From the IMG/VR virus record IMGVR_UViG_2885360797_000005: a DNA stretch of 64,000 bases; one strand, given 5' to 3'. Shown one piece after another: positions 9,054 through 35,698 of this stretch. A program made the position numbers and the translations under genes. Positions within the stretch are counted from its first letter, which is position 1, and each line of letters begins with the position of its first letter. Source of the stretch: a virus. Taxonomy: Duplodnaviria > Caudoviricetes. The notes under the pieces were generated by a model that was given only the letters and a program-made list of their open reading frames with translations, was not told the origin of the DNA and ran no database searches.

Positions 9054-11006
9054 TTATGCTGCAAGCATACGCTGTGCCTGCTGTGCGGCTTGCATATTCG
9101 CGCCCTGCTGTGCCTGCTGTGCCAGTTCGGGCGAAATCCCTTCGGGCATCTGACCCTGCTCCAGTTGTTCGCGTTGGCTCTTGATGCTCTGCAAAAGTCC
9201 GTCCGCAAATGGGAAGTCACCGTGTTCAAGCAACTGCTCTATGGAGATTGCCTGCGCTTTCCACAACTCCATCAGCATATCGTTCACAATTGCGCGGTAT
9301 GCAGGCGTTGACGTGCTTTCTACAATAGACAGGTCAAACTCAACGTCACGGATTTTCCGTGGGTCATACTCAACGATAGCCGAGTTCTTGCCTGCGATGT
9401 TGAACACTCTCGGAGTTTCGTAGTATTGCTGAATGTTCTTGACATCCTTTGTCGCGCCATCTCTGATGAACGAAGAGAACGTATCGAGCAGGTCAAGCAA
9501 CGAGGTTGTTGCGTTCTGCGCCTGCTGATTGTAGAGGCTTGCTGACATTCCCGAATAGCCAGGCTTGCCCTGCAATGCGCCGTTCACGCCCGATATGTCC
9601 TCAAAGAATTTCAGCTGCATATTCAGCAACTCGGTTATGCCTATCTGCGTGCAGTTGTTGGCAACCTGCTGTGGCAGGGCCGTGCCTGCCTTTGGCTGTC
9701 TTATCATTATCACGCCGTTGAACCGCGCCCACTCGTCTGCAATATCTTCTATTGTCATTCCTTTTGGCAGGCAGTCCTCCGGGAAGAGAAGCACACCCTT
9801 TGCACTCGCACGCATAATCCAGTCGTACATCGTGATGAGGCGGTTGGTGTATCGCTGTTGGTCGATCACGTTGCTGACTAAAGAATGAATTTCTCCGTCA
9901 ATGAACGGATACGCCTTGAAAACGTATGGGTGGCTCTTGTGTTCGTAGGGCGTTTCTCCCTCTTCCAGTATGTCGCCGAAAGGAGAGAGCAGATAATAAT
10001 ACCAGTAGGAGTCCATGAACCATTCGCACTGAATCAGAGGAACGTCACTCTCGTCCATGCCCAATTCCTGCGCCTCGCGCTTTCGCTCTCGGTTCACACT
10101 GCCGACAAATTCCTCATAGTCCTCCAGTTCGATTTTGAACACATCGCCGTTGTTTATATCGTGACAGCGGTAGCGAGGCTTGCTCTCCTTGCGCCACACC
10201 TCAATCACACGGCATCGGGTAATGTCGCGTGGAACGAGGAAATCATAGTATCCCTGCAACGGATGACCGAAAGATTCAAATGCCGCGCCCAATGCATTCT
10301 TGTCACGGGCATCTTTGTATATGTCCGCAAGACGTTTGTAGTCTGCCGGATTATGCGCGAACCGCTCACACAATTCTTCAAACGATACGTCATGCACCTC
10401 TCCGAGGCAGGACACGTCCCATCCTCGGAAGTCGCGCATATTGTTATCTATAAAGAAATTGTTAGGCTGAACATAGTCCGTCCAACAATCCAGTTTATCA
10501 TTGCGCCAGCCATACCACTTGCGCTGTACGACAAAGCCGGAGATTAAGAACTCTTCCATGCATCGGGCGTTAATCTCGGTCATGCGGTTGAGCTGCATAT
10601 TGCATTGCAGGACGGTTGACATGGTTTCGCCGTATTTCTGCTCGTCGCGGTCACGCGCCGTGCAGGTCGGCTCTTTGGCCTGACTGCGGTACACGCCCAG
10701 TACAGCCTGCACCATTCGGCGGATAAGGTTGTTCTTCAGTGCGACATTGCCCTGCGACTTGATGTAGTCCTCTTCCCTCATCATCTTGCCGTCAACGCAT
10801 ATCAAGTCATCCCACTGCCTGCCGTAGGTATAGTTCTTGTTGCGCTCTCGGTCTTGACGGAATGTCTCCATTGCCTGCCAATATTGTTGCGCTTCCCATA
10901 GAACATCAAAGGCTCGGTTGCGCCCCGTACTCTTGGCGCGTGCCACGCTGTCCAGTTCACTCTTGGGCATTACGCGGCTTGCTTTATGTAATTTCTTCTT
11001 TGCCAT
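9054..11006 (-). CDS. Portal protein (P22-like); start revised to MAKKK at 11006
   Basis: Y.GRQW, NNLI...V..V.G, IDQQRYTN, EDISGVN..LQG motifs and Gln-rich tail; -7 element lies just upstream of the revised start. Confidence 0.85.
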   Translation of the reverse strand: MAKKKLHKASRVMPKSELDSVARAKSTGRNRAFDVLWEAQQYWQAMETFRQDRERNKNYTYGRQWDDLICVDGKMMREEDYIKSQGNVALKNNLIRRMVQAVLGVYRSQAKEPTCTARDRDEQKYGETMSTVLQCNMQLNRMTEINARCMEEFLISGFVVQRKWYGWRNDKLDCWTDYVQPNNFFIDNNMRDFRGWDVSCLGEVHDVSFEELCERFAHNPADYKRLADIYKDARDKNALGAAFESFGHPLQGYYDFLVPRDITRCRVIEVWRKESKPRYRCHDINNGDVFKIELEDYEEFVGSVNRERKREAQELGMDESDVPLIQCEWFMDSYWYYYLLSPFGDILEEGETPYEHKSHPYVFKAYPFIDGEIHSLVSNVIDQQRYTNRLITMYDWIMRASAKGVLLFPEDCLPKGMTIEDIADEWARFNGVIMIRQPKAGTALPQQVANNCTQIGITELLNMQLKFFEDISGVNGALQGKPGYSGMSASLYNQQAQNATTSLLDLLDTFSSFIRDGATKDVKNIQQYYETPRVFNIAGKNSAIVEYDPRKIRDVEFDLSIVESTSTPAYRAIVNDMLMELWKAQAISIEQLLEHGDFPFADGLLQSIKSQREQLEQGQMPEGISPELAQQAQQGANMQAAQQAQRMLAA

Positions 11007-11031
11007 TGTAATTGGTATATTATGGACGGTG

Positions 11032-11074
11032 CAAAGATAACACTCTGCATCGTCCACAATCATTTAACTATTGC
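11032..11074 (-). promoter_or_regulatory. Putative late promoter for the portal gene
   Basis: Minus strand GCAATAGTTAAATGATTG-N17-TATCTTTG; overlaps an imperfect inverted repeat at 11024-11055. Confidence 0.55.
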
Positions 11075-14000
11075 TGTATGTATTCCTCTGCGAATCGTTC
11101 CTTCATTTTGTTGACCTGCACAGAATCATGAGCGACTTTCATAAGTGATACAACCTCCCGTTTGAGCCTGCGCATTTCTTCCTCGTATGTCGCCCGTTCT
11201 TCATCGGCGATTTCAGAGTCTTTTGTCGCTCTGTTCAACCAGTTGTAATCGGTTATATACTCATCCATCACATCATGCCTTGCTCCGTCTCTCGAATGTT
11301 TCAGAGCATCAAGAAAAATACTGTACCTGTCTGAGCCTCGCTCTGCCTCGTCCTCGTATTTACGCAAAAGGGTGTGAGTGCGTCTGTATTCCTCAAGATA
11401 TTTGAAGAAGTCCGAGTTTATTTTTTTCTCGGCGGTTCGTTCGTCTCCCATCTTGACAAGCCTGTTCACCAGAAGGATGCTGCTCGGGTCATACTCCCGC
11501 TCTCCGAGCATCGTCTCGCCGGTCTTGACCATCTTGTTGATTACATTTGAGTAGCCGCCGAAGTAACCGTTAAGAAGGTACTCCAGCTGCGCGGGGTTGA
11601 AATTCGCCCATCCTGCGGCATAGTTGTTCCCTCCGCTTGCCTCGTTAGCCCATCGGGATAGTTCAACGAGCTGAGTGTTGGTGCGTGGATATGCTTTTGT
11701 CCATTCGGGCATATTCTTGTTGAACGGAGTGTTTTTGTAGATGGGCAATCCTGTCCATGATGTATTTGTAGCTGTTTCCACCATGGGTTTAAACGCACTC
11801 GGAACGAATGCATGCAGTCCGCCTCCTCCCTCCATGAAGTCAAGAGGAAGCAGTTGCGAGAGTTGGGATGCTGTCTCTTTCGCCAGTTCTGCGTCTGAAT
11901 ACTCTTCCCTTCCTGATGTCACACTGTAAGCGAGTTCTCCAAGACCATAAATTGCCCGGTATTCAACCGGTAGTGGAATTGTTAGCCATTGTTCGCCGAA
12001 GCGGAACATCAGATTCGAACGGCGCGTGTACTTCGGTACGTTATAATATCCATTCTTATCCTCATCATCTCCGTCATCCGCCAGTAACGCCATTATATAA
12101 CCCAACAGCAAAAGTGAGGTTGCGGCTGTGATAGACTTGACAGGGTGCTTGCGGAATGCCTTGCCGAAGTTCGCCGTGCCTTGTATGGCAGCATTCCAGA
12201 ACACATAGAAACTCCTGCCGAGACCGGAAGTGAATCCGGCAGCTTTGCCTGCAAAAGTCTGTCCCGTTGCATCCATGAATTTGCTGCCAGCTCCCTTCTT
12301 GTTGAAATTGACGGATATTTCCTTTGCATCATACGCAGACCTCTGTACGTCTCTTCCGACCTCTCGCGATGTTATGAAGGCCGCGAATCGCGCACTGTTC
12401 TCCACTGCCCGGTTTATCTGGTCGAGGTTGTTGCCGATAAGACCAAGAATACTCATCGGATTCAGCTGCCCCCTGCGGGCCTCTTTCATTATTTTTGATA
12501 CAAGCTTCTTCTCCTGTTCAAGATTCCGCTGCAAGGTATAGCCGGTCTCACCACCCCAATGCATGAACTCATAGAACATTCTGTGCATTGGATTGCGCAT
12601 ATCAAGTTTATTCGCCTCATATAGGTGCAGAAGCTCGACCATGCGTATGGGATTGACCTTGGCGTGGTTCTTGTGGAATCTCATCGCATAACCTTGATTC
12701 TCCTTCACATGTACCATCGTGTTGGAATATATCAGGTCTCGGATAAAGTTCGACACAACAAAGTCGGGGTTTCGTGTGGTGTAGAGCTGGCTTAACTCCC
12801 GGTTGACGGTTGAGGCTATATTGAACACTTTGCCGATAGCACCGTTGAGGTCATTGTCGGGATTGGTAAGCCCGTTGACTGCCTGAGCAGCCCTCGGATT
12901 GCCGTTGATGGTGATGACATAACTCTCGCCGTTGCGTTTCACTACCACTTGATGTTCTTTGATATTGCCGTCAACAATACGATACGGTATGCCGATAGCG
13001 TCTCGTCCTCGCTTATACTTGTCCGGTTCCGATTGCGACAACGACTCCATGCGCTCCTCGAAATCCATCACAACTTTGTCTATCTCATCCGGTGTCATGT
13101 TTTCGTCCACATCGGCAAAGACAGGCTTCCATGTATCCGTAATTTCGTCATGGACCAGCCATAGTTTATTCACGCTTGCAAGGTCGCTCGGATGATTCTG
13201 AACATATGTGAGGAATTTCTGCTTCATGACGTTGCGGTTACCTTGTATGATACTGTTCTGCGCCATATAGGCAATCGTGGCCAGTGGGTCATCCGCCTTA
13301 GATTTTCGCCCTTCCGCTTTCTTTATTGGACTGCTGAACGCACCCTTTTTGCTTGTCAGATAGCCATACACATCATCGCTCGTCTTCTCGTCAAAGCCTT
13401 GCAGTGGAATGTAGAAGTTATACATATCTCGAATCTTCTCATACTGCGCCTTGCTTATCAAACCGCAATTATAGATTTTCTGCAAAGATGTTTTGGTAGC
13501 TTTGTTTACTGCACTCCACAATGCAGGGATATCTGTTGAATGCGCCGCCTCGTAATCGTCAACCATTTGCTGCGCCACGATTTCAGCGTTCTGCCAGTCC
13601 GTCTCTCCGGTCAGACCGCATAACCCGGCAAAGTCTCGCTCTGATTCTTCTCCATTGGCAATAGCTTCATTACGCATATAGGCATTACGCTCCAGTCCAT
13701 GCTTGGCCATCATATAGTCCAACAGCTCTTCACGTCCTCTTTTATCACCGGACATGCGAGCGGCTATATCAAGGAGAGGGCGCAGGATGCGATGTTCATA
13801 CTCGTCCATTTCAGCATGGCTCTTACTGCTCATAAGGTTTTCTGCTATGTATGCGTTCTCAAAACTTGACACATCCTCTATGTCGCGTTTTGCACCTTGA
13901 CTTTCCACGGCTTTGTAGAATTCCATAAGTCCTCGCATGGAATCCTGCATAGCCTCGGTAAACTGGTACATACTTGACTGTATCTGCTTCTCATACATGG

Positions 14001-17000
14001 CACGAGCCATCACCGGGACGCGCTCCACATAGTCAGCCCCGTCTCTGAATCTCACATCTTCGTCTCCGTCAAATGTCGGATTCTCAAAAGTTTTTATTAC
14101 CTTTGCAACATCTTCCAAGTCAAGATAGTCAACGTCAGCGAGAATCGTTCGCTGTTTGTCTATTAAGGCTTGGATTTTTTGTTTGTCTGCATAAAGCAGC
14201 TTCCCTTGCGAAATCCAGTTCAGCCATTCGGCGTTGTGCTTGGGGAATACATTTCTTACGCTGTTTATCTCCAGCGCTTTGCCATTGACAATCGGATTTA
14301 GGGAAAGTCCTACGATAAATTGCTTGCCATTGCTTTCAATTCCCACAATAATATTCTGCATCTTCCCCTTGTTGCCGTAGGCGAATACTGCCATAGGGGT
14401 CTGCAGTTCCTTCACAAGATTCCGTATCTCCGCCAAATCAAAATCATGCCCATATTCGGTTGCTTTGGCACGTAGTCTTGTGGCAGACATCTGAATAGGC
14501 AGATTGGGAACACCGGTGGAGCGTAAAATGTTACTTGGCATTCCTAACTGATAAATATGGCCGTCAGGAAGATTCCCATCAACCTGCCGCTGTAATTCTT
14601 TATTGAAACGATTGTTGGCGTCCTCAATTTTGGCAGATTCGCTCAACATAGCCTCGCCCCATCCCGTACGGTGACGCATAACGGCATCCTCGGCATCGGC
14701 GAACACGCCGCCTTTGCCCTGTTTATCGCGCATATTCTTCCATGACTTGAAGAGGATATATGAAAGGTCTTTATCGTTGAGGCGTATGCTCTTGGCAATT
14801 TTTAAACCGCTCAGGAATTTGTCCAGGAACGATTGAACCTTTGCCTTGATTTTACCCCAGAGCGTCAGTTCGTCACGGCTCATCTTCTCAAAACCCTCGC
14901 TGCCGATACGACCGGCGAGATCTGCCATATATTCCTCAGTGGCTTCCTTGCGGAAATCCTTGCGCTTTGCTTCGGCCTCAACTCGCGCCTCTGCCATGTC
15001 GGTGTAGTAATTGGCGTTCACATCTTTCCCGGCTCGCTCGTGTGCCTGTGCCTTGCGAGTGCGCAGGCGGTCGGCTTCCTCGCTCACCATTCTGTCGGTC
15101 ATCTTGTCAATGACTTTGCGGATGGGATTTGAGGCATGGTCGTAAATCTCGCCGAGGAATTCATCGAAGCGTTCCTCTCCTACGAGCGCACGCAGGCCCT
15201 TGTGTCCTGCAACTTCATGGACAAACGTATTGTCCACATCGGCTACATTGACGTTGTTAGGCAGGACGATGACAACCTCATCATCCTTTGCGCTCCACCA
15301 GCCTTTGGCACGCCTCTCTCTGCGAGTGGGGAGTGCATCGGCCTCTTCCTGCGTCCTTACAATACGGACTGGGGTGTTGGCTCTTGCCGACAGGTCGGCG
15401 ACACGCGCTTCTTTGGCTTCGGTCGATGATTCGTAAGCGTCAAGGTAGGCGCGTGCCTTTTCAAGACCTGCGTCCCATTCGCCTGCGTTCACTCGATCGC
15501 GCAGCTCATTGAGCATGGGTATGTCGGCTTCTGCCACGCTTCCGCTGATGTCACCGAACTTTGCGCCACGTTTGGCGAGTTCGGCACGGAGCATCGGGGG
15601 AACGGCATTTATGGGGAACGTAATCTTTTGGTTGCCCACGCGCTCCATGATGAGGTCTGCAACCTCGCTCCACGGAACAATGCGCCCCGGCTTGAAATAG
15701 CGCGACAGCATGGTCTGAACCTTGGTGTCATCGCTCAACTGACCGTTGACGCTTCCGCTGTGCCAGTCCATAAGACCTACGGAATCCTTTGCGCCCTCGG
15801 CCTGATAGCCGCTCGTTTCCTCGCTTTCGGGATAGTAACCCTCGACAACAAGAAGTTCGGGTCGGTCGTAGGCGGCTGTGAACTGGTCGTTGAGCGGAGA
15901 GGTACGGATATGGAAATATGGATTGTAGGCCACATCCCCGGTGGTGCGTCCGTTACCCTGCACAAGGTCGGCTTTGCCGTTCTCCTTGCGCATACCCTCT
16001 TCGCTCTGCTCCCAACGGCTGAATATCATCGGCGCACGCCATTCTCCGTTCTGCTTGGCGGTCATGGGTGGCAATACGCCCATGTTCGCCCACTGCGAGT
16101 AGCGGTAGCCTTTCTTCAGCGGCTGTGCGTCAAGGAAGTCAAGCAGTTCACGCTCGGCGACAAGGCGATACTTATTGCCGTCCCCTGTGGTCGGGGTGTC
16201 AGTGCTGTCCTCATCGGTCAGAGTGATGTCCGAAGCGGTTTCTACCGATTTGTCAAGTTCGGCATACTTGGCTTCTTTCTCTGCCAATTCTTTCTTCATG
16301 GCTTCCTCATACTTGGCAAGACGCTCTTTGGCTTCTGCCAGTTCCTGCTTGTGTGGGAACTCACGGCCGTTGCGCTGTTCAAGTTGGGTTCGTTCCTCGG
16401 TGTAATGAGCGAGTTGCTGTTGACCCCTGCTAAGGAGTTCACGGCTCTCTCTGCCAGTCACAATGTCCTCGGCGATTTTCTGCATTATGTTCTTTAGACG
16501 GTTGCCCTTGATGGCTTGGTCTTTAATGCCGAGTTCCTCGCAGGAATATGTGACATTGCGCTCCGGCTCAAACGTCAGAGTACCCTGACCCTTGCTGTCA
16601 ACGGTTCGGCTGACGGTCGTTGTGACCTCAAATTTCAAGCCGTCAACATCGACCACAAGTTTACTGGTGTAGTTGTCAGCACCCTCACGGACATTCTCGG
16701 CCGCCTCGTTCATCTTGGCATTCTGCTCTTTGAAGAAATCATCCATAGCAGCCACGCTGTCGAATGTGAGTTTGCCGATGGTTATCTTCTTGATAGTGCC
16801 GTCGGGGAAGTGTGAACCGATTATTTCAAGGTTCTTGGTTTCAATCTCGATGCGGCGTTCAGCACCTTTGATGAAGCCCTCAACCTTTGGCAACTGGTTG
16901 TGAACATAAATCTGATCGAGGTCGTGACCTTTCTGCTTGGCGGTAAGATTACGAACCTCGCGCTCGGCTTGATTCTTCAGTATGGCATACTCACTGCCCG

Positions 17001-20000
17001 AAAGTTGCGCGGTCATGTCGCCGAAAGAATCTTCTTCCTCTTCCAGTACGCGGTTTTCCATTGAGTTCTGCATCATCTTTGAGCCGTTCATGATTGAATC
17101 GGCTATCGCGCCTTTGGTTTTAAGACGCTGATATGCGGTTACGTCAAGGCTGTCCTCAACACCGAAACGGATAATGCGGACCGGTATGTCCATATCCTTG
17201 TGCAGGTTGCCCTGTCGCAGGGCGCGTCCGTTGCGCTGTGTGTAGTCCATCGGGCGGTTGGGCGCGTCCACATGGATGAGGGTGTGCAGGCGTTCCTGTA
17301 TGTTCACGCCAGTACCGAGAGTAAAGGTTGAACCCATGATGACACGGATTTCACCTGCGTTGACTTTCTCGAAGATGTCCAGTTTCCTCTTGACAGTCAT
17401 ACCCGGCTTGATGACAACTATCTGCTCGGCAGGAACGCCCTCGGCTATGAGTTTCTTGCGAATGTCCTCATAGAGGTTGAATCCGCTCTGCTTATTCTGA
17501 TAGTTGTCGGAGAAGATTGCGACTGTGCCTTTGTATTTCTCGCTGTCGCGGAGTGAGCGCAAGGTTTCGCGCACGGTCGCATTGGTCTTGCTGTTGGGGT
17601 CATCTTCGGCGTTGGGAACGACAAGGCGCACGTCAACGGCGGCTGCCTTTGCAATGCCGTACATCGTGAGCGGAATATGGCTGTTCTCTTTCTTCTCCTT
17701 GCCAGTCATATTGTCGTAGCGGTCAAGTTCTGCCTTGACGTACTTCATGACACTGCGCATGGCGCGGGTTTGCGGCAGGTAGATGTCCTGTGGCTTACCG
17801 CCTTCCATATCGGGAATCTTGTCGCTTACACCGCCTGCCTCGCGTGTGAGGACAGTATCGGCGACACTGCTCCATATACGCACGAGTTCGGGCAGGTTCA
17901 CATATCCGGCGAAGCGGTTGTTCTCTTTGAACTTGCCGTTGGTCGAGAACTCTACCATCTGCGCGATGTTGCCGAAGTTGCGGACAAAATCGTCAAAGTA
18001 GTAGATGCCGTAGGATTTCATCGTGTCAACTGGCATGAGATAACGCATGAACGTCCATATCTCGGCGGCTGTGTTGGAGATAGGCGTACCAGTCGCAAAC
18101 ACTACGTTGCGTCCGTTATTGCGCTCCATGACAGCCTGCGCCTTTAGGAACACACCCTGCGACTTCTTGCTGTATGAGGGGTCAACGCCTTTCACACCGC
18201 GTTGCATGGCGGTGGCGAAGCCGAGGTGCTTGTATTCGTGGGCCTCGTCCACAAGTATGGCGTCAATGCCCATATCGTCAAAGTTCTCCACATCGTCAAC
18301 CTCGCGGTCGAGCATTTCCAGTGCGCGAACCTCGGCGTTCTGACGAGTGGTGGCCTCGCGCTTCTCATCGCGTTTCTTCTTCTTGCCCTGCATGGTTTCG
18401 GTCAGTTCGGCAAGTCGCGCTTCCTGCTCGGCAAGTTCCCTTTCGGCTTGGCGAACAATCAAACTGCGACCGTCTGAATCAGCCTCGCGCATGGCTTCAA
18501 GAACTTTCATCTTCTCTTCGATGATGTCCTTGACGTATGCCATTTCGCGCTCCTCGCTGTCGGGGATGCGCTCAAATACGGACTGGGGAACGACAATCAT
18601 GTCCCAGTCGTTGTACTTGATTTTAGCATAGAAGTTCTTGCGGCCCTCGGCTGTGCGGTCGGCTTCCTCAATCGTCAGCACCTTTGCATTTGGATAGATT
18701 TCCTTTGCGCTCTCCACAAACTGACCGACTGTCGCGTTCTGAACGACAATCATAGGCTTGCGTGCTGTGCCGAGTCTGCGCATTTCCATAGCCGTGGTGA
18801 TGAGTGTATAGGTCTTGCCAGTACCTACCTCATGTGCAAGCAGGATAGGTTCGGTAGTTCCTCTTACCACGGCTCTGCCTTGATGAGGACGCAGGGCAAA
18901 GGGATTGCCGTGCAGCTCGCTTACTTGACCGCCGAAGTGCTGGGGAACGAACTCGTCCGGGATAGACATAGGCACATAGTTGTTGAACTGGTCGTTGTAG
19001 GTTTGCTCGATGCGTGCCGACATTGCAGGGTCAGCCTGCATATGCTCACGCGCCCAGTCCTTGAACTCTGCGCGTATCTCGTCAACTTTGGTGCCGCACT
19101 CGGCGGTGGCCGCCTTGTCGGTTATCGTTTTGGTTGAGCCGTCATAGTGCTTCTCGGTCTTGCTGACGGTTATCTGCCTGTTGGTGATGGCGGCTTCAAT
19201 GAGTTCGTGACCCATGATTGTCTTGTCACACATCTTGCTGACAACAGCCATAGCGCGGTTCTTCTCGTTGAATGTACTCCACGGAGTTTTCATGAACCAT
19301 GTACCGCCTGCGTTGGTGAGAGTGACGCGCAGACCAGTCTTTTCAAACACGAAGTCCTCATATAGTTTCGGCTCGATCCACGATGAACCCAACGAGAACT
19401 CAATGAGGTGCGCAGGTATGGTCATCGGCATAACTCCCTCAAGAGCCTTGATATTCGCGTCATACCTGCCGTCAGCATTATTCTCCTGCGCAATATGCAA
19501 TTTCTCGCGCACATTTCCCGAAAGGTATTTGTACGATACCTCCATTGTGCCGGTCGACGGATTTTCAAAGCCGGGTCCGCTTGACACGATTTCGCGCTTC
19601 ACCTCCTCGGTCGGTTTGCCGAGGGCCTGGCCGATATATTCAACATCAACACCGCCACTCTTGTATAGGCTTGCGAGGATAGCGTCTTTGATGGTGGTAG
19701 GCTGTGGCTCTTTCTCGGTGTCAATAACTCGGTGGCTGAAGATGTCAGTCTTGCCGACCTTGACAACCTTGTTGCCCTTCTTATCGCCTTTCTCGGAATA
19801 AGTTTCCAGTGCAAGGATGCTTGAGAAGTCAACATCGTTGCGCAGGAATGAGATTGCGGTGTTCTTATGCAGGTTGCCGTAGGTGCGTGTGAATGTGTCA
19901 AAGGCGCGGTTCAACTCTTTCAGAAGAGGTGCAAGTCCCTCGTCACCCTCATTGCTCGACTGGTATTCAAGCACATCAGACAACGCTTTCTTGATAGCCG

Positions 20001-23000
20001 AGTATGCTTTGAAACACTCCGCTTTGGTGTGACCCTTGACCTTGTTTTTGTTCAGTCCGAGGGGAACAGCCTCGCCCATTCGTGCCATGCAGAGTTCGCC
20101 CTGCGAGTTCAGCACCATGCTTCCCTCCTTGACACCCTCGCCGAGTTGCTCATTGATTCGGGTTATCTCATCTTCGACTTTCGGCGCGGCTGTGGCTTCC
20201 TCTTCCATGTCGGCGAAACTGCTTGCCCATTCGGACAACATCTTCGACTGTTCCTTTTCCTTGACTGGGAAGAGGGCGCGACTGGTCGGGAAGCGTGTTT
20301 CACCACGCTCAAAGTTGAACATCATCTCGCCTGCCATATTCTCCGGATGTTCCGCAAAATATTTGTTGTACATCATGCTGTACTGCTTGATGACGGGAAT
20401 TTCCTGACCTTTGACCTTGCGAGTGTCGCCAGTATCATAGTCAGCCACGCGCACACCTATTGCATCCGTCACGTCTATGGCATTAGGTGAGGGCTTGCCG
20501 TTGACGCGCTTGCGCACAACGATGATGTCCGAGGTTGCCCCGGTGCCTCCGAATGTCTTGTTGTGCATACGGAAAGCACCTACAACGTCAGCATTACCCT
20601 CGCCGATAATCCAAAGGCGAAGTTCCTTTGAGTTGTCCATCGTGCCGCTTGACGTGATGAATATGCCAATACCGCCCTCGCGGAGTTTGCGGATATTCTT
20701 CGCAATGCAGAAATCGTGGATGTCATGGAATTTCTTGGAGAGGTCTTTGTCGCCTGTCTCGTCAAACACTTTCGCACCAGTTATGAAAGGCACGTTGGTA
20801 ATGGCGAGGTCAACGGTGCCGTTCTGCACTCGCGTTTTCTCAAAGCCTTGTATCTCCACCTTGGCATCCGGGTAGAGCAACGAGAGGATTCCGCCAGTGG
20901 TGCGGTCAATCTCAACGGCATGGATTGAGCTGCGCTCACTCATGTCGGTAGGCATAAGTCCGATGATATTGCCGATACCTGCTGACCCCTCAAGCACGTT
21001 GCCGCCCTTGAAGCCCATAGCGCGTGCTACATCCCACATGGTGTCTATGACCTCGGCAGGAGTGTAGTAAGCGGAACGGCGGCTGTCCACAGCGTCTTGA
21101 TAGCCGTCCTCGCCCAGTAGTTCTTTCAGACGTTTGGCAATCGGGTTCGGAGTATAGCCCTGCTCATTGAAAGCCTTGCCCAGTCCACCCCAACCGCTGA
21201 ACTTACGGAGTACGGCCATCTGTTCGGGTGTGGCGGTTTCGCCTGCGTCAAGCAGTCGCTTGGCAAGTTCGATCGCTTCCATATTGGCCTTGATGCGTGC
21301 GTCCTCGCCTTTGGGGGCATAGTCAACGCCACGCTCGGCATGGTTGTTGCGGACATTCTTCCGCTCCGATTCGGGGACCGGCTCAATTACTGGTTGGCTC
21401 TTAGGCTTTCGAGGTACGCCTGCGCCTCGCTCTCCGTCAGACATAGGATTGACGCTACTACGTCCACCCATTCCTCGTCCGTCAGTTCCTTTAACTTCAT
21501 TCCGTTGGCTCTCTCCCAACGGTTCATGCGATTGAGGTTCGTGTCCTCTTTCTCGCTCGGCAGTGCCGGGGCGAGGTTGTACGTCAGTTTCTTCATGATT
21601 GCTTGAGTTTTGAGTGTTATCGAATAGGCCGCCGAACAAATCTCCGACAGGTTGTTCCGGCTTCAAAGTTACATCTTTTTTGCGAGAACTTCGCTTCTTC
21701 TCCTGTGCGGCTCTTGCTACACGCTTTGCCTCGCCGAAGATTCCATCGGCAGGCTTGACGCGGCTCCAGTCTCCCTTTTCTGACATGACATCCTTGACAG
21801 CCTCAAAGATAGGCCCACCGTCAGTGTCAAAATCTTCTATCTTGACTTTCTCCCAATTGCCGTTGCCGTAACGGTCCCACATGACCTCATCGCCGACCTT
21901 GTAGCCGTTGTGAGTCACGTCTACTTTTCGCTCTTCGGCAAGCTGCGCTTCAACTTCGGGAGTGATGGTATATGGAGATTCGCCACGTTCTGCCATATCA
22001 GACCATTCATGCCAAAGCTCATCTACAGACTTTTCTTTAGGAAGATAGTCGCGTGTAATCTCTTTTACCCTGCGCAGAAAATCGGCATAGGTTGATTCAA
22101 CCGGGGCATACATATTGTAGCCCCAACGTTCCATACCGCTCCCATTCGGATTTTCCACCCGGTATAGTATCCGCTCAACGGCAAGATTGTCACCACGTCT
22201 ACGTGTGCCTCTTTCTGCAACTGGTTCAAGACCGATATAGATGGCGAGTATTCTTCCCTCGTTGAGAGGGAGATTTACAATTACGTCACCACCTGCCGGG
22301 GCGATGTTCGCTCTTACCGCAGTGCCTTTCTTGACTCTCTTGCGGCCGAGCGTGGTCGCACTCGTGACTTTAATGTCAATGCCGAGGTCGTTTACCAACT
22401 GCTTTGCAAGTTTTGTAGCATCTGCCACGGCTTTTTTCTCTGCTGTGAGCATATAGCCGTAACTCTCATGGAACTTTGAATCGTCCTCAACGGCTTCATA
22501 GTAGCCGAGGACTGCCAGTTGGTCGTTGATCTCGTCAAGTGTTTGGTCAATCAGTTCTGAGGCTCGGTTGAGTTCGCCTGCGTCTGCTGAAGTTTCTGCG
22601 ATACTTTCTGCCTCGCCTGCAACAGCCTCTGCTTTTTCTGCAAGAGCTGCTGTATCTGCTTCTGTCTGCTTGTCATTTTCTCTTCGGTTTTTGTTTCGGG
22701 TTTCGGTAAGTTCTTTCTGCGCCTGCGCGGATGCGGTTGAGGCTTTGCGCTCTTCCACAATCATAGCCGCCTGCGCGATTGGGTCAGCCTGCTTCTTGTC
22801 GAAGTTCTGCACGTCAAACGTGGCAACCTGCTCGGTCGGTGTAAAGGTATATTTGTCATAGCCGGGTGTCCAGCGTGCGCCCTCATAGAACGATTTGAGC
22901 CACGGACGTATCTTGTCGCCCAACAATCCCACCATCTTGGTGGCATAGTCGGGGAATGCCGTTGTGCCTCGCTCGATAAGACCCATAGCAAGACGGATGC

Positions 23001-26000
23001 CTGCGGACTGGATGCGCTGACGCTCCTGCGCTGTCAGTTCGCCGGGGTCGCGGAACTTGATGTTGGTGTCGCCCTCGTCATCGCCTATGCCCAACAGGTC
23101 GCGCAACTCGTCAGCCAAAGACTTCATTTCGTCATCGCTGATTTCGTGCTGTTGCTCCGGCTCTGCCTTGACTGGTTCGGCGTGGTCGCTCAACTTGGTT
23201 TCTCCTTTGGTCGACAGGTCGGTCATCACATCTTCAAGGCTGACGCGGTTGATAGGTGCTTTCTTCGGCTTCCGTGCAGGCTTCTTCTCCGCAGGAGCCG
23301 CAGGAGCGACAGCCTCACGGAGTTCCTCGGCGGTCATTGGCTGTGCGTCCGCAACCGCTTCTTCGTTGCCAATCATCTCGGCGAGTTGGCGTGCGGCTTC
23401 CTCACTGCGCATCATGTAACCGCCCTGCTTGCGGTCATACCAACCGCGAGAGGTTTTCTTACCCTCGGTGAGAGGCTCACGCGCGAATGTGTCAAGAGCC
23501 GCCTTTTGCTCGGCGGTCAGTTCGCGGTTGAACTTGACAAGGTGAACATCGCTCGTCTTGCCTTTCTTGTTGGTGTAGGTTGTCGGCGTAATGGTGTACG
23601 GTTCAGAACTTTCCGCGCTCTCCGTTTGTTTATCTGCTGACAAAGTATTAACTTTGCGGTCAGAAGGCGAGTCGAGCGTAGGGCCGGAAAGGGCACCGGC
23701 CTCCTCCGAAGATTCGGAGGGCAGTATGAGGGATTGCCCGTCCTCACGCTCTTTCCCCTTAACATTATTGTCGGACGTAGGAACAAGGTCCGGTCCCTCC
23801 GATTCACTCGGAGCCTCGGTTAAGTACCTTTCAGAACTGGGGGACAAACTTTCAGAGAGATGTAGAATTTTACCATTCTGCATCTCTTTCTTTATTGCTT
23901 TACCCTCGGCTTCATGGCTGCTTATTGATACCTCCATGCCGTCACGCTGAACGGTTACAGATTCAAAATGCACAAGACGGCTTCCATCGGATTTGATGAA
24001 CGTCTTTACAAACAGATATTTGCTGTCTCGCTCTGCACCTTCAGCAGGTGCGTTTTTCTCAATGATGACATCGGGAGTGTTGAGTGTAGGATGTATCATG
24101 CTGAAATACTCTGTCCTTTTCAGTGAGTAGAGTTTCAGCAACTGGTTTGCACCCATCTTGACAATGCCTATGGGAGTTTCAACAGTGCCGTCCTCTCCGA
24201 ACTGGGCAATCCAGTTTTCGGGCGTGAGTTCAATTGAGGGAGCGACTTCGGCGGTTGCTTCCATTCGTGCAATCAACTCCGTTGCTTCCTGCTCGGTGAG
24301 TGAGCGTCCAATCATGCCGTTGCCCTCAATAGCCTTGACGCTCTTGTACTCGGCAAAGGGCTTGGTCTTACGTCTGCTCGACTGAATCCACTTCTTGAAC
24401 TCTTCCTTGCTGACGTGGGTAATCGCGCCGAGACCGGTCCAACCCGGCTCATAGTTGGAGAGGTATGCGTAACGCGCGGCCTGCTCCGTGGGGAAGCCGT
24501 ACATAACCTTATGCTCGTCAAACGAGCCGTCCTCGTTCACTTGGTCAACGACAAACACATCGCCCTCTTCGGGAGTGTCGGAAAGGAACACGTCAATGTG
24601 GTCGCCGTCCACGCCCTCAGTCCCACGGATATATCCGTAGTCGTTCTGCATGGTAGTTTCCCACGGCTTGCCGTCCGCTCCAGTACCTCGGCGTACACTA
24701 CCTTTGGCGTTCTCAATGCTGACGTTGTAGCCGTCAACCTTGCGATGTTCCATCTTGTAGTTGCCTGCGGCTTTCTGCGCCTCAGTCGGTTCGGACTGCA
24801 TACCTCCGTCAACCTTTAGCTCGGCGGACGGATGTCCATCAATATACTGGGCAATCTCGGCGATGTCGCCAAAACGCTTGCCGTCAAATTCAAAGTATGA
24901 GCCTGTGTAGTGTCCGTCCTCATTGGGTGCGTCAACTTGCGTAACTATGTGAGTGCCGTCAATGATGATTTCACACTTATAAGTGGGCTTGTCACTGTCA
25001 CCCTCTTCCCAGTCGTTTTCAGTAATCTCAACACGGGCCGCGAGTGCCTGCTCTTCGGGAGTCAGTTCCTCGCGAGTGCCTGCTACTGGCTGTTGAGGCT
25101 CTGCACTGCGTTCAACATCATTCGGAGTTTGTTCACTTTCTTGGTCTCGTCCAAGCTGTTCTGCTTCTGCTCTGCGCTTGCGTTCCGCAATGGCAGCTTC
25201 CACGAGTGCCTGCTGTTCTTTGGGGGTTGCATTTCTGAAATGTTCGTTTACATTGGTGAGTATTTCTTCTTTTGAGGGGATCGAGCCTGAAAACATGTCA
25301 AGTTGACCGCCCGAAGCTTGTGCAGCCTCGTTGTTGTATGAGGTCAGCACCTTGCGCAGGTCGCTCGGCTTACCGCTGTTGAGAATGTCTGCAAGCAGGA
25401 GTGCGGTCGCGTCAGTCACACGGCTGTCTCCAAACTCATCATCAAACAATCCCTGCATACGTCCGAAGGGCGACACTGGCATTCCATCGGTATATACGTC
25501 CGGCATAGCGGCCTTGGCGCGAGTAACAAGGTCTACAGCCTTTGCAAGTTCCTCGCTGATGTCGTAGCCGTTTCGGGCAAGAGTGCGGTTATTGGCAATC
25601 TCATTCAATCCCATAACGATTGACTGGCGAAGTGTCGGCATAGAGATTATCTGACGCACTGCATCGGGCGAGGTTTGGAACACCTTGCCGATAAGAGTGT
25701 TTTCGATAAGTTCCTTTCCTGCGGCCGACAACGCCGTGCCTGTCCGCAGTTCGGGCATCTGCATATCGTTGATGACTCCTGCCTGCATGAGTGCGCCCAG
25801 TGCGTGAGCTACGGCTTTCTCGTCAGCATAGTAGTCCGAGAGGCGGTCGTAACGGCTGATGTCGTTGACAATGACGTTGAACACATTGTCGGGGACAATC
25901 TTTCCGAGTTTCACGGCGGCTTCGGGCTTGCCCTGCGATTTCTTCTCCTGCGCGTTGAACCGAGCAAAGGTTGTGGCATCGTAAGGAAGAGCCTCGTCCG

Positions 26001-29000
26001 GCACGAACACCACGCGCGGATTCTTCATACTTGCCACCTGCTCCGGGGTAAAGCCGTATTTCTTGTGTCCGAACTGCGCGAGGTAGTCATTGTATGCCCT
26101 ATCTGTGCCTTGACGCGCTGCGAGGTCGCCCGACATGGTGCGATTGTTGCCCGACAGCACCACGCCGTCCTTGCTCACTATTACTGGGTCTTGCAGGGCG
26201 CGGTTGTCATAGTTGCCTGCCATACCCTCAACTTTCTGCTGTGCGTCCTTATCACGCTGATAGTCGCGGTCGTTGACGCTTTGGCCGTTCTCATCAATCG
26301 GGAAACCCTCGGTGGGTGCATAAGCATTGTTCACATCATGGCTCGGCGAGGCGGCTCCTGCCTCGGTCAGAATGTATCTGCCGGAGATAGTAGAGCCGTC
26401 GGGCAGGGTCAGAGCGTCCTCGTTACCCTCCACCTTAGGAGCGGACTCCCAACGCTCGCGTATCTTCGGATTGACGGCATGAACGCCGATGCGCTCCTGC
26501 TCGGCCTGCTTCTCTGCCTTGATGCGCTGTTCCTCTTCAAATCGGGCGACAGCCTTATCATGGGCGATTGCGTCACGCTGACGGCGTTCCTCTTCCTGCT
26601 GACGGCGCAGCTCGGCTTTGCGCGTGTTGTGGACGGCAACAATGCCGTTCCATGCGTCAATGCGTGCCTGCGCCTCGGCAATCTGCTGATTGTACAGGGC
26701 GAGGTCGTTCTGATACTGCTCGGCTGCCTTGCGCTTGGCTTCTGCCATGGCCATGGGCGAACCTTTCAGTTTGGGGGCCTTCATTGTCGGCGGCTTCTTA
26801 TTGAGAGCTTCGAGGTCGGCGGTCGCCTGCTGAACCTGCGCCAAAGCGATTTCAACGGCATCATCCTCACCGCCGACAGCCTCAACAAGACCATCCCAGG
26901 CCGTTTCCTTATCCACGGCTTCAAAACTCGGCTCTCCTTTCTCGTTGAGAGGAATGCGCGAGAGTGCGGTCTGCTGTCCGTTTTCTACACTTGGGACCGT
27001 TTCGGGCGCGGTTTCTGCGTCTGAAACTGGGTTTTCCGTAGGATTGGGAACGCTTTCGGGCATTTCGGGAACGCTCTGCGCTTCCATAGCCCTGTTCTGC
27101 TGTTCGTATTCGTAAGCCTCAAGCAGACCACGTCCGAAGTCAGTCAGACGGTTGGAATCGGCGCGGAGGTTCTCAATCTCGGCGTTTAGTTTGACATCAT
27201 CGAAATTCTTTGCATCGTTCAGTCCGCTTTCATAGCCTCGGTCATACGCCTCGGTGTCGGCGGTCGCAGGTGCTTCCGCTTCGGGCTGGGCAAATGGGTC
27301 TATATCGTCCTGCTGTGGCTCTTCTCCCTCGGCAGATTCTTCGGGGGCAACGGCATTGTCGCCAAAGATATTCATCTGCTCCTGCTCGATCACCGACAAA
27401 GCGGTGTCCAGTTCGTCCTGCGGATTGACAGCCTCGGACACTTTGAAGATTTGGTCGGGGGATGTAAACTGATATTCCCCGGTCTGCGCGTCCATGACAA
27501 CGACACTCTCCGAAGAGTTGTGTACGTCAACGGCTGTGCCATCGGGGAACATTACAACATCACCCTTGACAATATAGACCGGTCGGTCATCCACTTTCAT
27601 GGTGGCAGGAATAATCACGCCATTGTCCTTGTGGGTGCGCTTGGCAACACTTTCCTCAACCTCGGCACGCTTGCGGTCGGCAACCTCGTTGGATGCGTCC
27701 ATAACGCCGTCAAGAGCCGCCTTCGCATTGATGTAGTAGAGGACAGCGTCTTTCTGCTCAATAGTCAGTTCGGGGTCATTGACCAACGCCCACGGATTTT
27801 CATTCACATGGAACATATAGTATTCGGCTTCAGAACCGAAAGCGTCCTCAACCGCTTGGTATGCTTCCTGCATACGCAGGGCGATAGCGTCCACGTCTGC
27901 CTGCACGGTCGGGTCGCCCTCTTCAAAGCGTCCGAACAACTCACGGCCCTGCTCATATTGGCTTTGCGCCTCTGCCTGCTCCGCAGTAGGCTCTGCGGCC
28001 TGCTGACGTACCTCTTCGGGAAAGAGCCGTTCAAGATACGTCTTGACGGCATCCTGCTCCGCTTTGGTGCGCTTGCTTGGCATCTTGCGCAGGACTGCAT
28101 CTACATCAATGCCAGTTTCCTCTTTCAGAGCCTCGCGGATTGCTTCGGGGCGATAGCGGTCGGCAATGTCGCGGTTGCGCTCCATAGCATCATCAAGGAA
28201 CTCAACCAACTGCTTCTGTGATTCGGTCACGTCCTTGTTACCGGCCTTGACTTCGCGATAGATTCTCTTGATGGTTGCAGGGTCGGCACCGGGCGACACC
28301 TCGCTGATAGCGGCATCAAGCACCATGTCATCGGCAACGGCCTCCTTGTACCGCTCACCAACGTCCACCGAGTTGAGTTCTGCCTGACGCATGATGTTGT
28401 CGGTTTCCTGCTTGGCTTCCTGCTCGTTCTTGAACGTGCGACTGGTAACGACCTCGCCATTGGCGGCTATGGAGTTGACGGTCACACGTCCGTCAGCGTC
28501 CGTGTTGGTGGTGTAACCAGTAACGGAAGCCATCGGAAGTCTGCGCCCAGTAAGTATGTAGTAGGCTTTTGCGCGTGCGGACTGGCTCACATTGCCGTCC
28601 TGCATGAGTTCTTCCATTGAGGAATAGCCGTCAAATTCGGGATTACGGCTGATTGTTTCAGCCTCAACGCGCTCTGCTCTCAACTCAATCGCTCCCTCGG
28701 TAGGGTTTGGTTGAGATACTTCCTGCACTCGGTCACGGCTGAACAGGTCGGCGAGTTCGCCATAGCCTGCCCTGCGCAGCTCTTCGCGCTCATCGGTGGT
28801 AAACCGCATTGCCTCTGCTACACGTCCGGCATCGTCAGCCCCTGTGAGATTGTTTATGTTGGCAGGGTCAAGAGCCTTGCGGATTCTCTCCTCGAAGTCC
28901 ATGCGGTTGTGGTTGCGCTCTGCCTGCGTCAGCGGTCGGCCGTTGACTGGCTTGACTGGGCGCAAACTGGCGATAACTCGCGGTGCGCTCTTGAGTCCGT

Positions 29001-35481: not shown

Positions 35482-35607
35482 TTACGTTTGTAATTATGTT
35501 TGTAAATTCTTGTAAGTGCCTTGCTCGAATGATATAGCCGATTTTGTAAGTTTTGCCGACACATTCTGCATGATTATCGTGCAGAATGTACGAATCTCCC
35601 AAGCGCA

Positions 35608-35652
35608 ACTTAGGCGGTAAGCTCCTTTTTATCGGAGCGTTACCGCCTAAGT
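35608..35652. terminator. Hairpin following the duplicated gene end
   Basis: ACTTAGGCGGTAA-GCTCC...GGAGC-G-TTACCGCCTAAGT inverted repeat. Confidence 0.65.
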
Positions 35653-35674
35653 ATCGGATTACGTTAAGTTACGC

Positions 35675-35698
35675 TTACTCTTCGATGGCAGCCTGCGC
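35675..35698 (-). other. att junction: stranded 3' end of a host gene, probably pyruvate phosphate dikinase
   Basis: GCGCAGGCTGCCATCGAAGAGTAA = AQAAIEE*, matching the PPDK C-terminus (..RLAAAQAA..); no upstream ORF; TGTAAG/TGTAAA arm-like repeats on both sides. Confidence 0.6.

Follow-up and report, generated by a model that had tools for sequence, protein, structure and literature searches.

A probable antisense small-RNA gene embedded in the MuF_C domain module of a giant prophage polyvalent protein

Introduction

Cis-antisense RNAs that cover the 3' end of a toxin-coding gene on a mobile element are represented by RatA/TxpA and SR4/BsrG of Bacillus prophage regions, in which the toxins are small membrane peptides with genes of their own. 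In the type III pair ToxI/ToxN, ToxI is a tandem repeat array that lies on the same strand as the toxin gene and upstream of it. The type III toxin-antitoxin class is described in PMC11980606. The OOP RNA of phage lambda is antisense to the 3' end of cII and leads to RNase III-dependent cleavage of the cII-O messenger RNA (mRNA), according to Krinke and Wulff (1987, 1990) as cited in PMC5869508, and 78 cis-antisense RNAs have been reported for Bacteroides thetaiotaomicron, 52% of them with a canonical sigma-ABfr promoter and many folding extensively (PMC7366714). Here we analyse a viral stretch of 64,000 nucleotides (nt), IMG/VR record IMGVR_UViG_2885360797_000005 (Duplodnaviria; Caudoviricetes), hereafter the window, in which a single gene encodes a giant protein with a MuF_C domain. 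Based on comparisons with relatives of this domain, we propose that a promoter-hairpin-terminator unit at the domain tail, on the strand opposite to the giant gene, is very probably a small antisense RNA gene, and on our best reading of the sequences this unit travels with the MuF_C domain module.

Polyvalent proteins, to which the giant protein belongs, have been proposed to be packaged and injected and are thought to act as injected arsenals of anti-defence and toxin domains; MuF-C is counted among the PBECR domains, predicted RNases of the BECR fold (Iyer et al. 2017, PMC5512222). The core that defines the PBECR clade has a helix at its N-terminal end and then 4-5 strands, and resembles RelE, colicin D or BrnT (PMC5512222). 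In the literature we found no published description of antisense RNAs in polyvalent protein genes. An earlier note on this DNA had pointed to the unit and had suggested that a toxin domain and its antisense RNA form a portable cassette.

Results

A box, a hairpin and a T-run opposite the MuF_C tail

The unit comprises the following parts.

14098..14105, plus strand: -7 promoter box TACCTTTG (TAnnTTTG), of Bacteroidetes type, antisense of codons Ala-Lys-Val, identified by pattern and codon choice
14109..14112, plus strand: predicted transcription start zone, 4-7 nt past the box, as deduced from the centring of such boxes at -7 (PMC7366714)
14114..14174, plus strand: three-segment hairpin of 61 nt, predicted RNA body and terminator stem, identified by fold and covariation
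14136..14154, plus strand: apical stem of 7 base pairs (bp) with its loop, the most conserved nucleotides of the unit (relative synonymous diversity 0.00-0.30 at codons 105-112)
14176..14188, plus strand: T-run TTTTTTGTTTGTC, antisense of the conserved D-K-(E/Q)-K codons, identified by sequence and codon choice

The succession of box TACCTTTG, three-segment hairpin and T6 antisense to the giant gene is thus present as the earlier note had described it. The T6 occupies 14176-14181 on the plus strand and is the complement of the D-K-Q-K codons of the window, and the helical segments of the hairpin measure 8, 5+3 and 7 bp. AAUCG, closed by a G-U pair, forms the apical loop, and the loop of 7 nt (GAAUCGU) given previously is obtained if this pair is left open, while we find no support for the accompanying remark that it is of anticodon-loop size. 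The sense strand encodes ...DKQKIQALIDKQRTILADVDYLDLEDVAKVIKTFENP, and the peptide AKV is therefore the reverse complement of the -7 box, as had been claimed. Since the Pfam MuF_C match ends at nt 14170, the unit is located at the tail of that domain. The box at 14098-14105 matches TAnnTTTG, the -7 consensus of the primary sigma factor of Bacteroidetes (sigma-ABfr; PMC7366714).

The predicted antisense fold at 14114-14174 reaches -27.5 kcal/mol (z -5.95), equalled by none of 200 shuffles, and when corrected for composition the hairpin takes 12th place among the roughly 25,600 windows of 74 nt that cover the two strands of the analysed DNA, with most of the higher-ranking ones being intergenic. 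Inside the giant gene, the two strongest structures are this hairpin and an equal one at 23836 on the plus strand, at the tail of the PBECR2 domain. The strongest composition-corrected hairpin on either strand is found just past the integrase gene, at 35602-35675, where it may serve as a terminator or belong to an attachment-site region. Bare motifs are frequent, as TAnnTTTG occurs nine times on the plus strand of the giant gene and terminator-like patterns are seen 29 times against 23 expected, all 29 on the T-rich antisense strand; hence, the case rests on conservation and not on pattern matches. Rfam 15 yields no match at the gathering score anywhere in the window, the best at the site having an E-value of 0.45 to unrelated families, and on this basis a known RNA family was rejected.

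The hairpin is conserved beyond its sequence

About 110 loci encoding relatives of the module were gathered from genomes, metagenomes and IMG/VR contigs of 45-65 kb, and the stretch from D-K-E-K to A-K-V was cut out codon by codon, giving 54 distinct nucleotide segments. A long hairpin forms on the antisense strand in all 54, followed by a T-run in 50, and the exact TAnnTTTG box stands at the equivalent place in 41. The hairpin is accordingly conserved in every homologous segment, and box, hairpin and T-run, which the earlier note had treated as a single transcription unit, are conserved jointly on the antisense strand of the relatives. Subfamilies at 23-34% protein identity keep a hairpin although both the peptide between the anchors and the hairpin sequence are unrelated to those of the window; these are found at L010, L064, L069, L071/72, L077, L080, L096-L102, L112 and L113, with predicted energies of -44 kcal/mol in L071 and -48 kcal/mol in L077, and a perfect stem of 21 bp in L064.

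As a control, each segment was recoded 100 times, with the protein kept and with the codon usage of the family. In 46 of the 54 segments the antisense energy is lower than in all 100 recodings, and in no segment do more than three of them match or undercut it, so that the hairpin is not a by-product of the protein sequence. In the main subfamily, comprising 41 sequences in a gapless alignment (A3), 93.7% of the cells are paired, a value reached in none of 500 shuffles, and 9 of the 23 pairs are altered on both sides in a compensatory manner; when the partners are slid against each other, pairing falls to 27-48%. The hairpin is the most structured 80-nt window within 3.4 kb, on either strand, in 24 of 41 loci. 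Together, the shuffles, the recoding controls and the conservation rule out a chance hairpin.

Codon choice preserves the box and the T-run

The codons of the unit were compared across 76 non-identical homologs, with the following usage at the T-run and box positions.

Lys 96 (T-run): AAA in 72 of 76, background AAA 59%
Glu 97 (T-run): GAA in 65 of 67, background GAA 64%
Lys 98 (T-run): AAA in 72 of 75, background AAA 59%
Ala 122 (box): GCA in 62 of 64, background GCA 35%
Lys 123 (box): AAG in 52 of 54, background AAG 41%
Ile at 124 (box): ATA in 32 of 32, background ATA 32%
Val at 124 (box): GTA in 20 of 21, background GTA 28%

The peptides AKV, AKI, ANI, SNV and TKV are all spelt xCA-AAx-xTA, which reads TAnnTTTG on the other strand, whereas at nearby conserved residues the synonymous codons are chosen freely (Phe TTT 53, TTC 19; Glu GAA 29, GAG 26; all four Pro codons). 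Relative synonymous diversity is 0.37 in the unit vs 0.73 outside it (Mann-Whitney p = 9e-9), with minima that coincide with the T-run, the apical stem and the -7 box. Judged by these sequence data, box, stem and T-run are under selection at the nucleotide level.

Some relatives are without the TA of the box and read TTTCTTTG or GACCTTTG. The subgroup with Lys at position 124 has the degenerate box TTTCTTTG as well as the weakest hairpins, i.e. box and stem weaken together. In two GC-richer relatives, the box position is occupied by TATAAT in L048 (925-945) and by TACACT in L046, which hints at a sigma-70-type box of a different host.

The antisense strand is most likely the one selected

In the predicted structures of the 54 segments, G-U pairs number 241 on the antisense vs 27 on the sense strand. 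The antisense strand is the stabler in 53 of the 54, by a mean difference of -8.0 kcal/mol, of which the recoded controls attribute -2.0 kcal/mol to composition bias. Scored with R1, a covariance model of the RNA, the antisense strand reaches about 100 bits and the sense strand about 18 bits, a difference that is in part expected because R1 was built on the antisense strand. From the G-U excess, the energy difference and the R1 scores taken together, the functional molecule is most likely a single strand of antisense polarity.

Other domain tails and free-standing copies

Within the giant gene, a plus-strand TAnnTTTG box combined with strong structure and a T-run is found only at 14098, at the MuF_C tail, and at 23649, at the tail of PBECR2, while the remaining plus-strand boxes, at 11542, 12490, 13497, 18998, 22848, 24699 and 30344, are without comparable structure plus T-run. 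The claim that the same layout follows both predicted RNase domains and none of the other domains therefore holds for the giant gene of the window. The second unit, which is the one that the earlier note counted as the first, is as follows.

23649-23889, plus strand: PBECR2-tail unit in which TAACTTTG precedes a strongly structured stretch of about 200 nt and a terminator-like hairpin of 15 bp, antisense to a low-complexity linker after PBECR2

The predicted RNA of this unit, of about 240 nt, is different from and longer than the MuF_C-tail hairpin.

In relatives, an analogous antisense unit is present at the tails of LPD3 (PF18798) modules, so the unit is not exclusive to annotated RNase domains. 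It is found in eight distinct sequences, where V-A-K/N-L-L codons give the TAnnTTTG box, T/Q-K-I-E codons give the T-run and the hairpins vary, and the antisense strand is the stabler in seven of the eight. LPD3-tail units are located at

L047:1039-1198
L020:3176-3335
L045, L021, L077, L034 and L027

A structural model of LPD3, at a predicted local distance difference test (pLDDT) score of 61, gives weak matches to BECR-type toxin folds (best Z 5.7). The MuF_C and LPD3 modules show no profile similarity (hhalign probability 0.3%), and homology between them was rejected. Of the portable pairing of toxin domain and antisense RNA suggested earlier, the portability is borne out in that the unit lies wholly within a recurrent module, while the restriction to toxin domains is weakened by the LPD3 tails.

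R1 matches a single copy in the genome from which the window derives. With this genome counted, 6 of the 151 genomes searched for the order have hits, as do 2 of the 151 searched for the family; the model recovers only MuF_C-type tails and a few remnants. In L122, L124 and L125, box, hairpin and T-run are kept where the opposite MuF_C frame is absent or broken. These copies, at L122:870-990 (G472:C44) and L124/L125:1501-1585 (G521:C16), carry TATATTTG, the hairpin and the T-run, and score 47-53 bits with R1. The former harbours just an open reading frame (ORF) of 61 amino acids (aa), situated between an epimerase gene and a DUF2442-like gene, and in G521 two identical copies of the unit lie 1.5 kb apart. 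The frame-less copies could be remnants or captured free-standing RNA genes. A separate resemblance is seen at L006:1477-1558 (G012:C5), where a host intergenic palindrome of about 110 nt after a TolC-like gene has an apex that matches the unit's apical stem-loop in 24 of 25 positions (R1 36.8 bits), a likeness that may have arisen by convergence or by chance.

The giant gene and its MuF_C module

The host gene and the relevant parts of its product are as follows.

11068..30909, minus strand: polyvalent protein gene of a prophage, 6613 aa, directly upstream of the portal gene, identified by ORF, Pfam and neighbours
14170..14466, minus strand: MuF_C domain (PF18819), a predicted RNase of PBECR type
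14050..14637, minus strand: conserved module of about 195 aa, with a BECR-like core and a C-terminal helix-loop-helix extension that holds the RNA unit, delimited by homology borders and an AlphaFold model

The window stems from a 2.9-Mb metagenome-assembled genome (MAG; G000, contig C322), and the closest public copy of the MuF_C module is in a Prevotellaceae MAG. The 6613-aa gene is flanked by an integrase-side region on one side and by the portal gene (9057-11063) on the other, and its product is for that reason regarded as a prophage polyvalent protein; the large terminase gene is on the opposite strand. Its Pfam domains are ddrB-ParB, InPase, PBECR2, SNF2/ResIII helicase, MuF_C and LPD38, with the MuF_C match exceeding the Pfam gathering cut-off (61.1 vs 27.6 bits).

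The borders of the module are sharp, homology extending from near aa 145 to near aa 330-344 of the query (window:13570-15069:-) in most loci, and the RNA unit falls entirely within it (nt ~14050-14637), 10-20 codons from the C-terminal border. A profile search with the module finds 2140 protein clusters at 50% identity, of which the best 150 are covered here, with the most distant relatives and other phyla outside the sample. Among the matches listed, one to five module copies occur per protein, at many positions, in proteins of 151 to 6743 aa. Searches of a phage collection by DNA and by protein returned no cultured-phage relatives. The MuF_C of phage Mu gp30 is uninformative as a comparison, as it is shorter (profile positions 10-91, 21 bits) and without the D-K-E-K tail.

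The AlphaFold model of the module (pLDDT 88.5) has a helix-plus-sheet core followed by a helix at 152-163, a loop and a helix at 174-183. The hairpin-encoding stretch corresponds to this C-terminal helix-loop-helix outside the core, and the apical loop of the RNA encodes a loop modelled at low confidence. RelE/BECR-type RNase toxins dominate the fold matches, yet all are weak (Z < 5), with BrnT at Z 4.8 and the toxin-antitoxin complex chain 7vd7_A at Z 4.2, along with CdiA-CT, RelE and colicin D. Residue H64 of the module does not vary among 35 sequences.

In L065-L068 and L074/L075, only the last 55-70 residues of the module and the RNA unit (R1 93-98 bits) are homologous to the window, and the differing upstream part suggests recombination inside the module. 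At L003:1430-1530 (G030:C126), the hairpin sequence appears twice around a run of N, with different flanks; the probable cause is either a scaffold join at a repeat or variation between strains at the border of the module. The second copy was also considered as a sign of a repeat-flanked module, and was set aside as it adjoins the run of N and probably reflects a scaffold join.

Discussion

Based on the conserved architecture of the unit, we favour, with moderate confidence, a cis-antisense small-RNA gene of the lambda OOP kind that is situated in the extension of the MuF_C module and would lower the production of the giant protein. Host RNA polymerase carrying the primary sigma factor would start a few bases past the -7 box TACCTTTG, and the transcript of about 65-75 nt would fold as one long hairpin and end at the U-run that follows. 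With transcription stopping at the U-run right after the hairpin, the latter would be both the body of the RNA and its intrinsic terminator. Over the tail of the RNase-like module, the predicted RNA matches the giant mRNA with full complementarity and, in the manner of lambda OOP or the type I antitoxin RNAs that overlap a 3' end, could act in cis by pairing with this mRNA, thereby reducing the output of the toxin-bearing giant protein at times of weak late transcription, for example in a lysogen. Transcription, transcript ends and regulatory effect are what we infer from these features. That the subfamilies share shape, box and T-run but not sequence suits a cis-antisense RNA, because complementarity to the target comes free. 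The units kept in L122, L124 and L125 opposite an absent or broken MuF_C frame likewise speak for an RNA gene.

Several observations weigh against this interpretation. The -33 TTTG of Bacteroidetes promoters is described as weaker and not always found (PMC7366714); in the window, as the earlier note had stated, there is none 19-21 nt upstream of the box, and among the relatives it stands at the right distance in only 22 of 63, with no sign of selection on its codons, so that a conserved -33 element finds no support. The exact box is missing in 13 of the 54 segments. The homologs are mutually related, and their counts are not independent events and overstate them. The D-K-E-K and A-K-V peptides are possibly under selection at the protein level too, although this would account for the residues and not for the choice of codons. 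Repression in cis is, moreover, one of several roles that such an RNA could have.

An RNA acting on the protein itself, i.e. a hairpin bound or cut by the linked BECR-like RNase domain as a built-in antidote or decoy for the producing cell in a type III-like manner, strikes us as unlikely. It would agree with the units being located at the ends of BECR-type modules, namely MuF_C here and, at 23649-23889, PBECR2, as well as at the tails of LPD3, whose model is weakly BECR-like in fold, with hairpin sequences that vary between subfamilies as for cognate pairs, and with the existence of free-standing copies. However, the features common to all subfamilies are restricted to shape, box and T-run, which is enough for a cis-antisense RNA, there is neither the repeat array nor the same-strand arrangement of ToxI-type RNAs, and the RNase activity of MuF_C is itself a prediction (PMC5512222; fold matches Z <= 4.8). 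A role of hairpin and T-run solely as a terminator, halting stray antisense transcription through the late operon with TAnnTTTG being no working promoter, is in line with hairpin plus T-run being commoner than the exact box (50 vs 41 of the 54) and with L002, L003, L080 and L113, which have a hairpin without a box. Yet synonymous codon choice holds the box across five diverged subfamilies, its distance to the stem is fixed, stems are weakest in the subgroup whose box is degenerate, and no reason is evident for a terminator at one fixed point of one protein module; we therefore hold a terminator without promoter to be quite unlikely.

The structure might alternatively operate in the sense mRNA, for example by pausing ribosomes at the domain border, by marking a processing site or by stimulating a frameshift after the A-rich D-K-E-K codons. 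The sense strand does fold better than its shuffles (-19.1 kcal/mol, z -3.67) and has an A-run ahead of the stem, but the antisense strand has a ninefold excess of G-U pairs, every one of which becomes an A-C mismatch in the mRNA, and the conserved downstream CAAAnnTA is left unexplained, making a sense role highly improbable. A -1 frameshift site in particular was rejected, since the A-run does not fit the frame that a slippery heptamer would need and no spacer separates it from the stem. Similarly, we see very little likelihood that the conserved nucleotides and the palindrome merely form a joint in the DNA that serves the shuffling of modules at their borders, with no RNA function. The short distance between unit and module border, the identical hairpins with differing flanks in G009 and G030, and the attachment of the tail to a different upstream part in L065-68 and L074/75 are all in line with such a joint, whereas compensatory changes and strand-asymmetric wobble pairs require selection on a single strand, and unrelated hairpin sequences at the same site are unusable as shared homology.

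A broader generalization of the cis-antisense gene is possible but doubtful, namely that every BECR-like module (MuF_C, PBECR2 and probably LPD3) of these giant injected effectors carries a reverse-strand RNA gene and travels and recombines with it as one cassette, and that free-standing copies in bacterial chromosomes or satellites were captured and silence or disarm incoming phages bearing the module. If true, this would represent a new and widespread layer of RNA-based control in conflicts between phage and host and between phages. How the producing cell copes with polyvalent proteins is a question on which an RNA embedded in each RNase-like module would provide a concrete and testable handle. 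About 90 nt are shaped jointly by a conserved protein tail and an antisense promoter-hairpin-terminator, in a module family of more than 2000 clusters (50% identity); these are unusually clear overlapping constraints and call for caution in codon-based analyses of such genes. The covariance model R1 permits metagenomes and metatranscriptomes to be searched for the unit.

In comparison to known systems, the MuF_C-tail unit fails the definitions of both type I and type III toxin-antitoxin systems. It resembles type III in that a structured RNA is genetically linked to a toxin of endoRNase type, as MuF_C is predicted to be, but the unit is single and antisense and not a same-strand tandem-repeat RNA upstream of the toxin. 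The type I antitoxin RNAs follow a similar logic, and by its position the RNA would overlap the mRNA of the toxin, but its counterpart here is a single domain within a multidomain protein of 6613 aa, instead of a small, usually hydrophobic peptide with its own gene. With the cis-antisense RNAs of B. thetaiotaomicron the unit shares promoter type, size class, strong structure and host phylum; those are, however, chromosomal, many being opposite polysaccharide-utilisation genes, with none reported in phage polyvalent protein genes. As for the features of a cis-antisense small RNA, the unit has at sequence level a promoter of its own on the antisense strand, held by codon choice, and a hairpin followed by a T-run as its predicted intrinsic-terminator 3' end. 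Lambda OOP RNA is the closest described counterpart. The MuF_C-tail unit differs from OOP in being located in the middle of a 20-kb reading frame, within a domain module of more than 2000 protein clusters, in having a Bacteroidetes -7 box, in coexisting with a conserved peptide and in being predicted from sequence. Both would be short RNAs made by a temperate phage from a dedicated promoter, with a hairpin ending in an intrinsic terminator, and both would lie antisense to the 3' portion of a coding segment that yields a product harmful if over-made.

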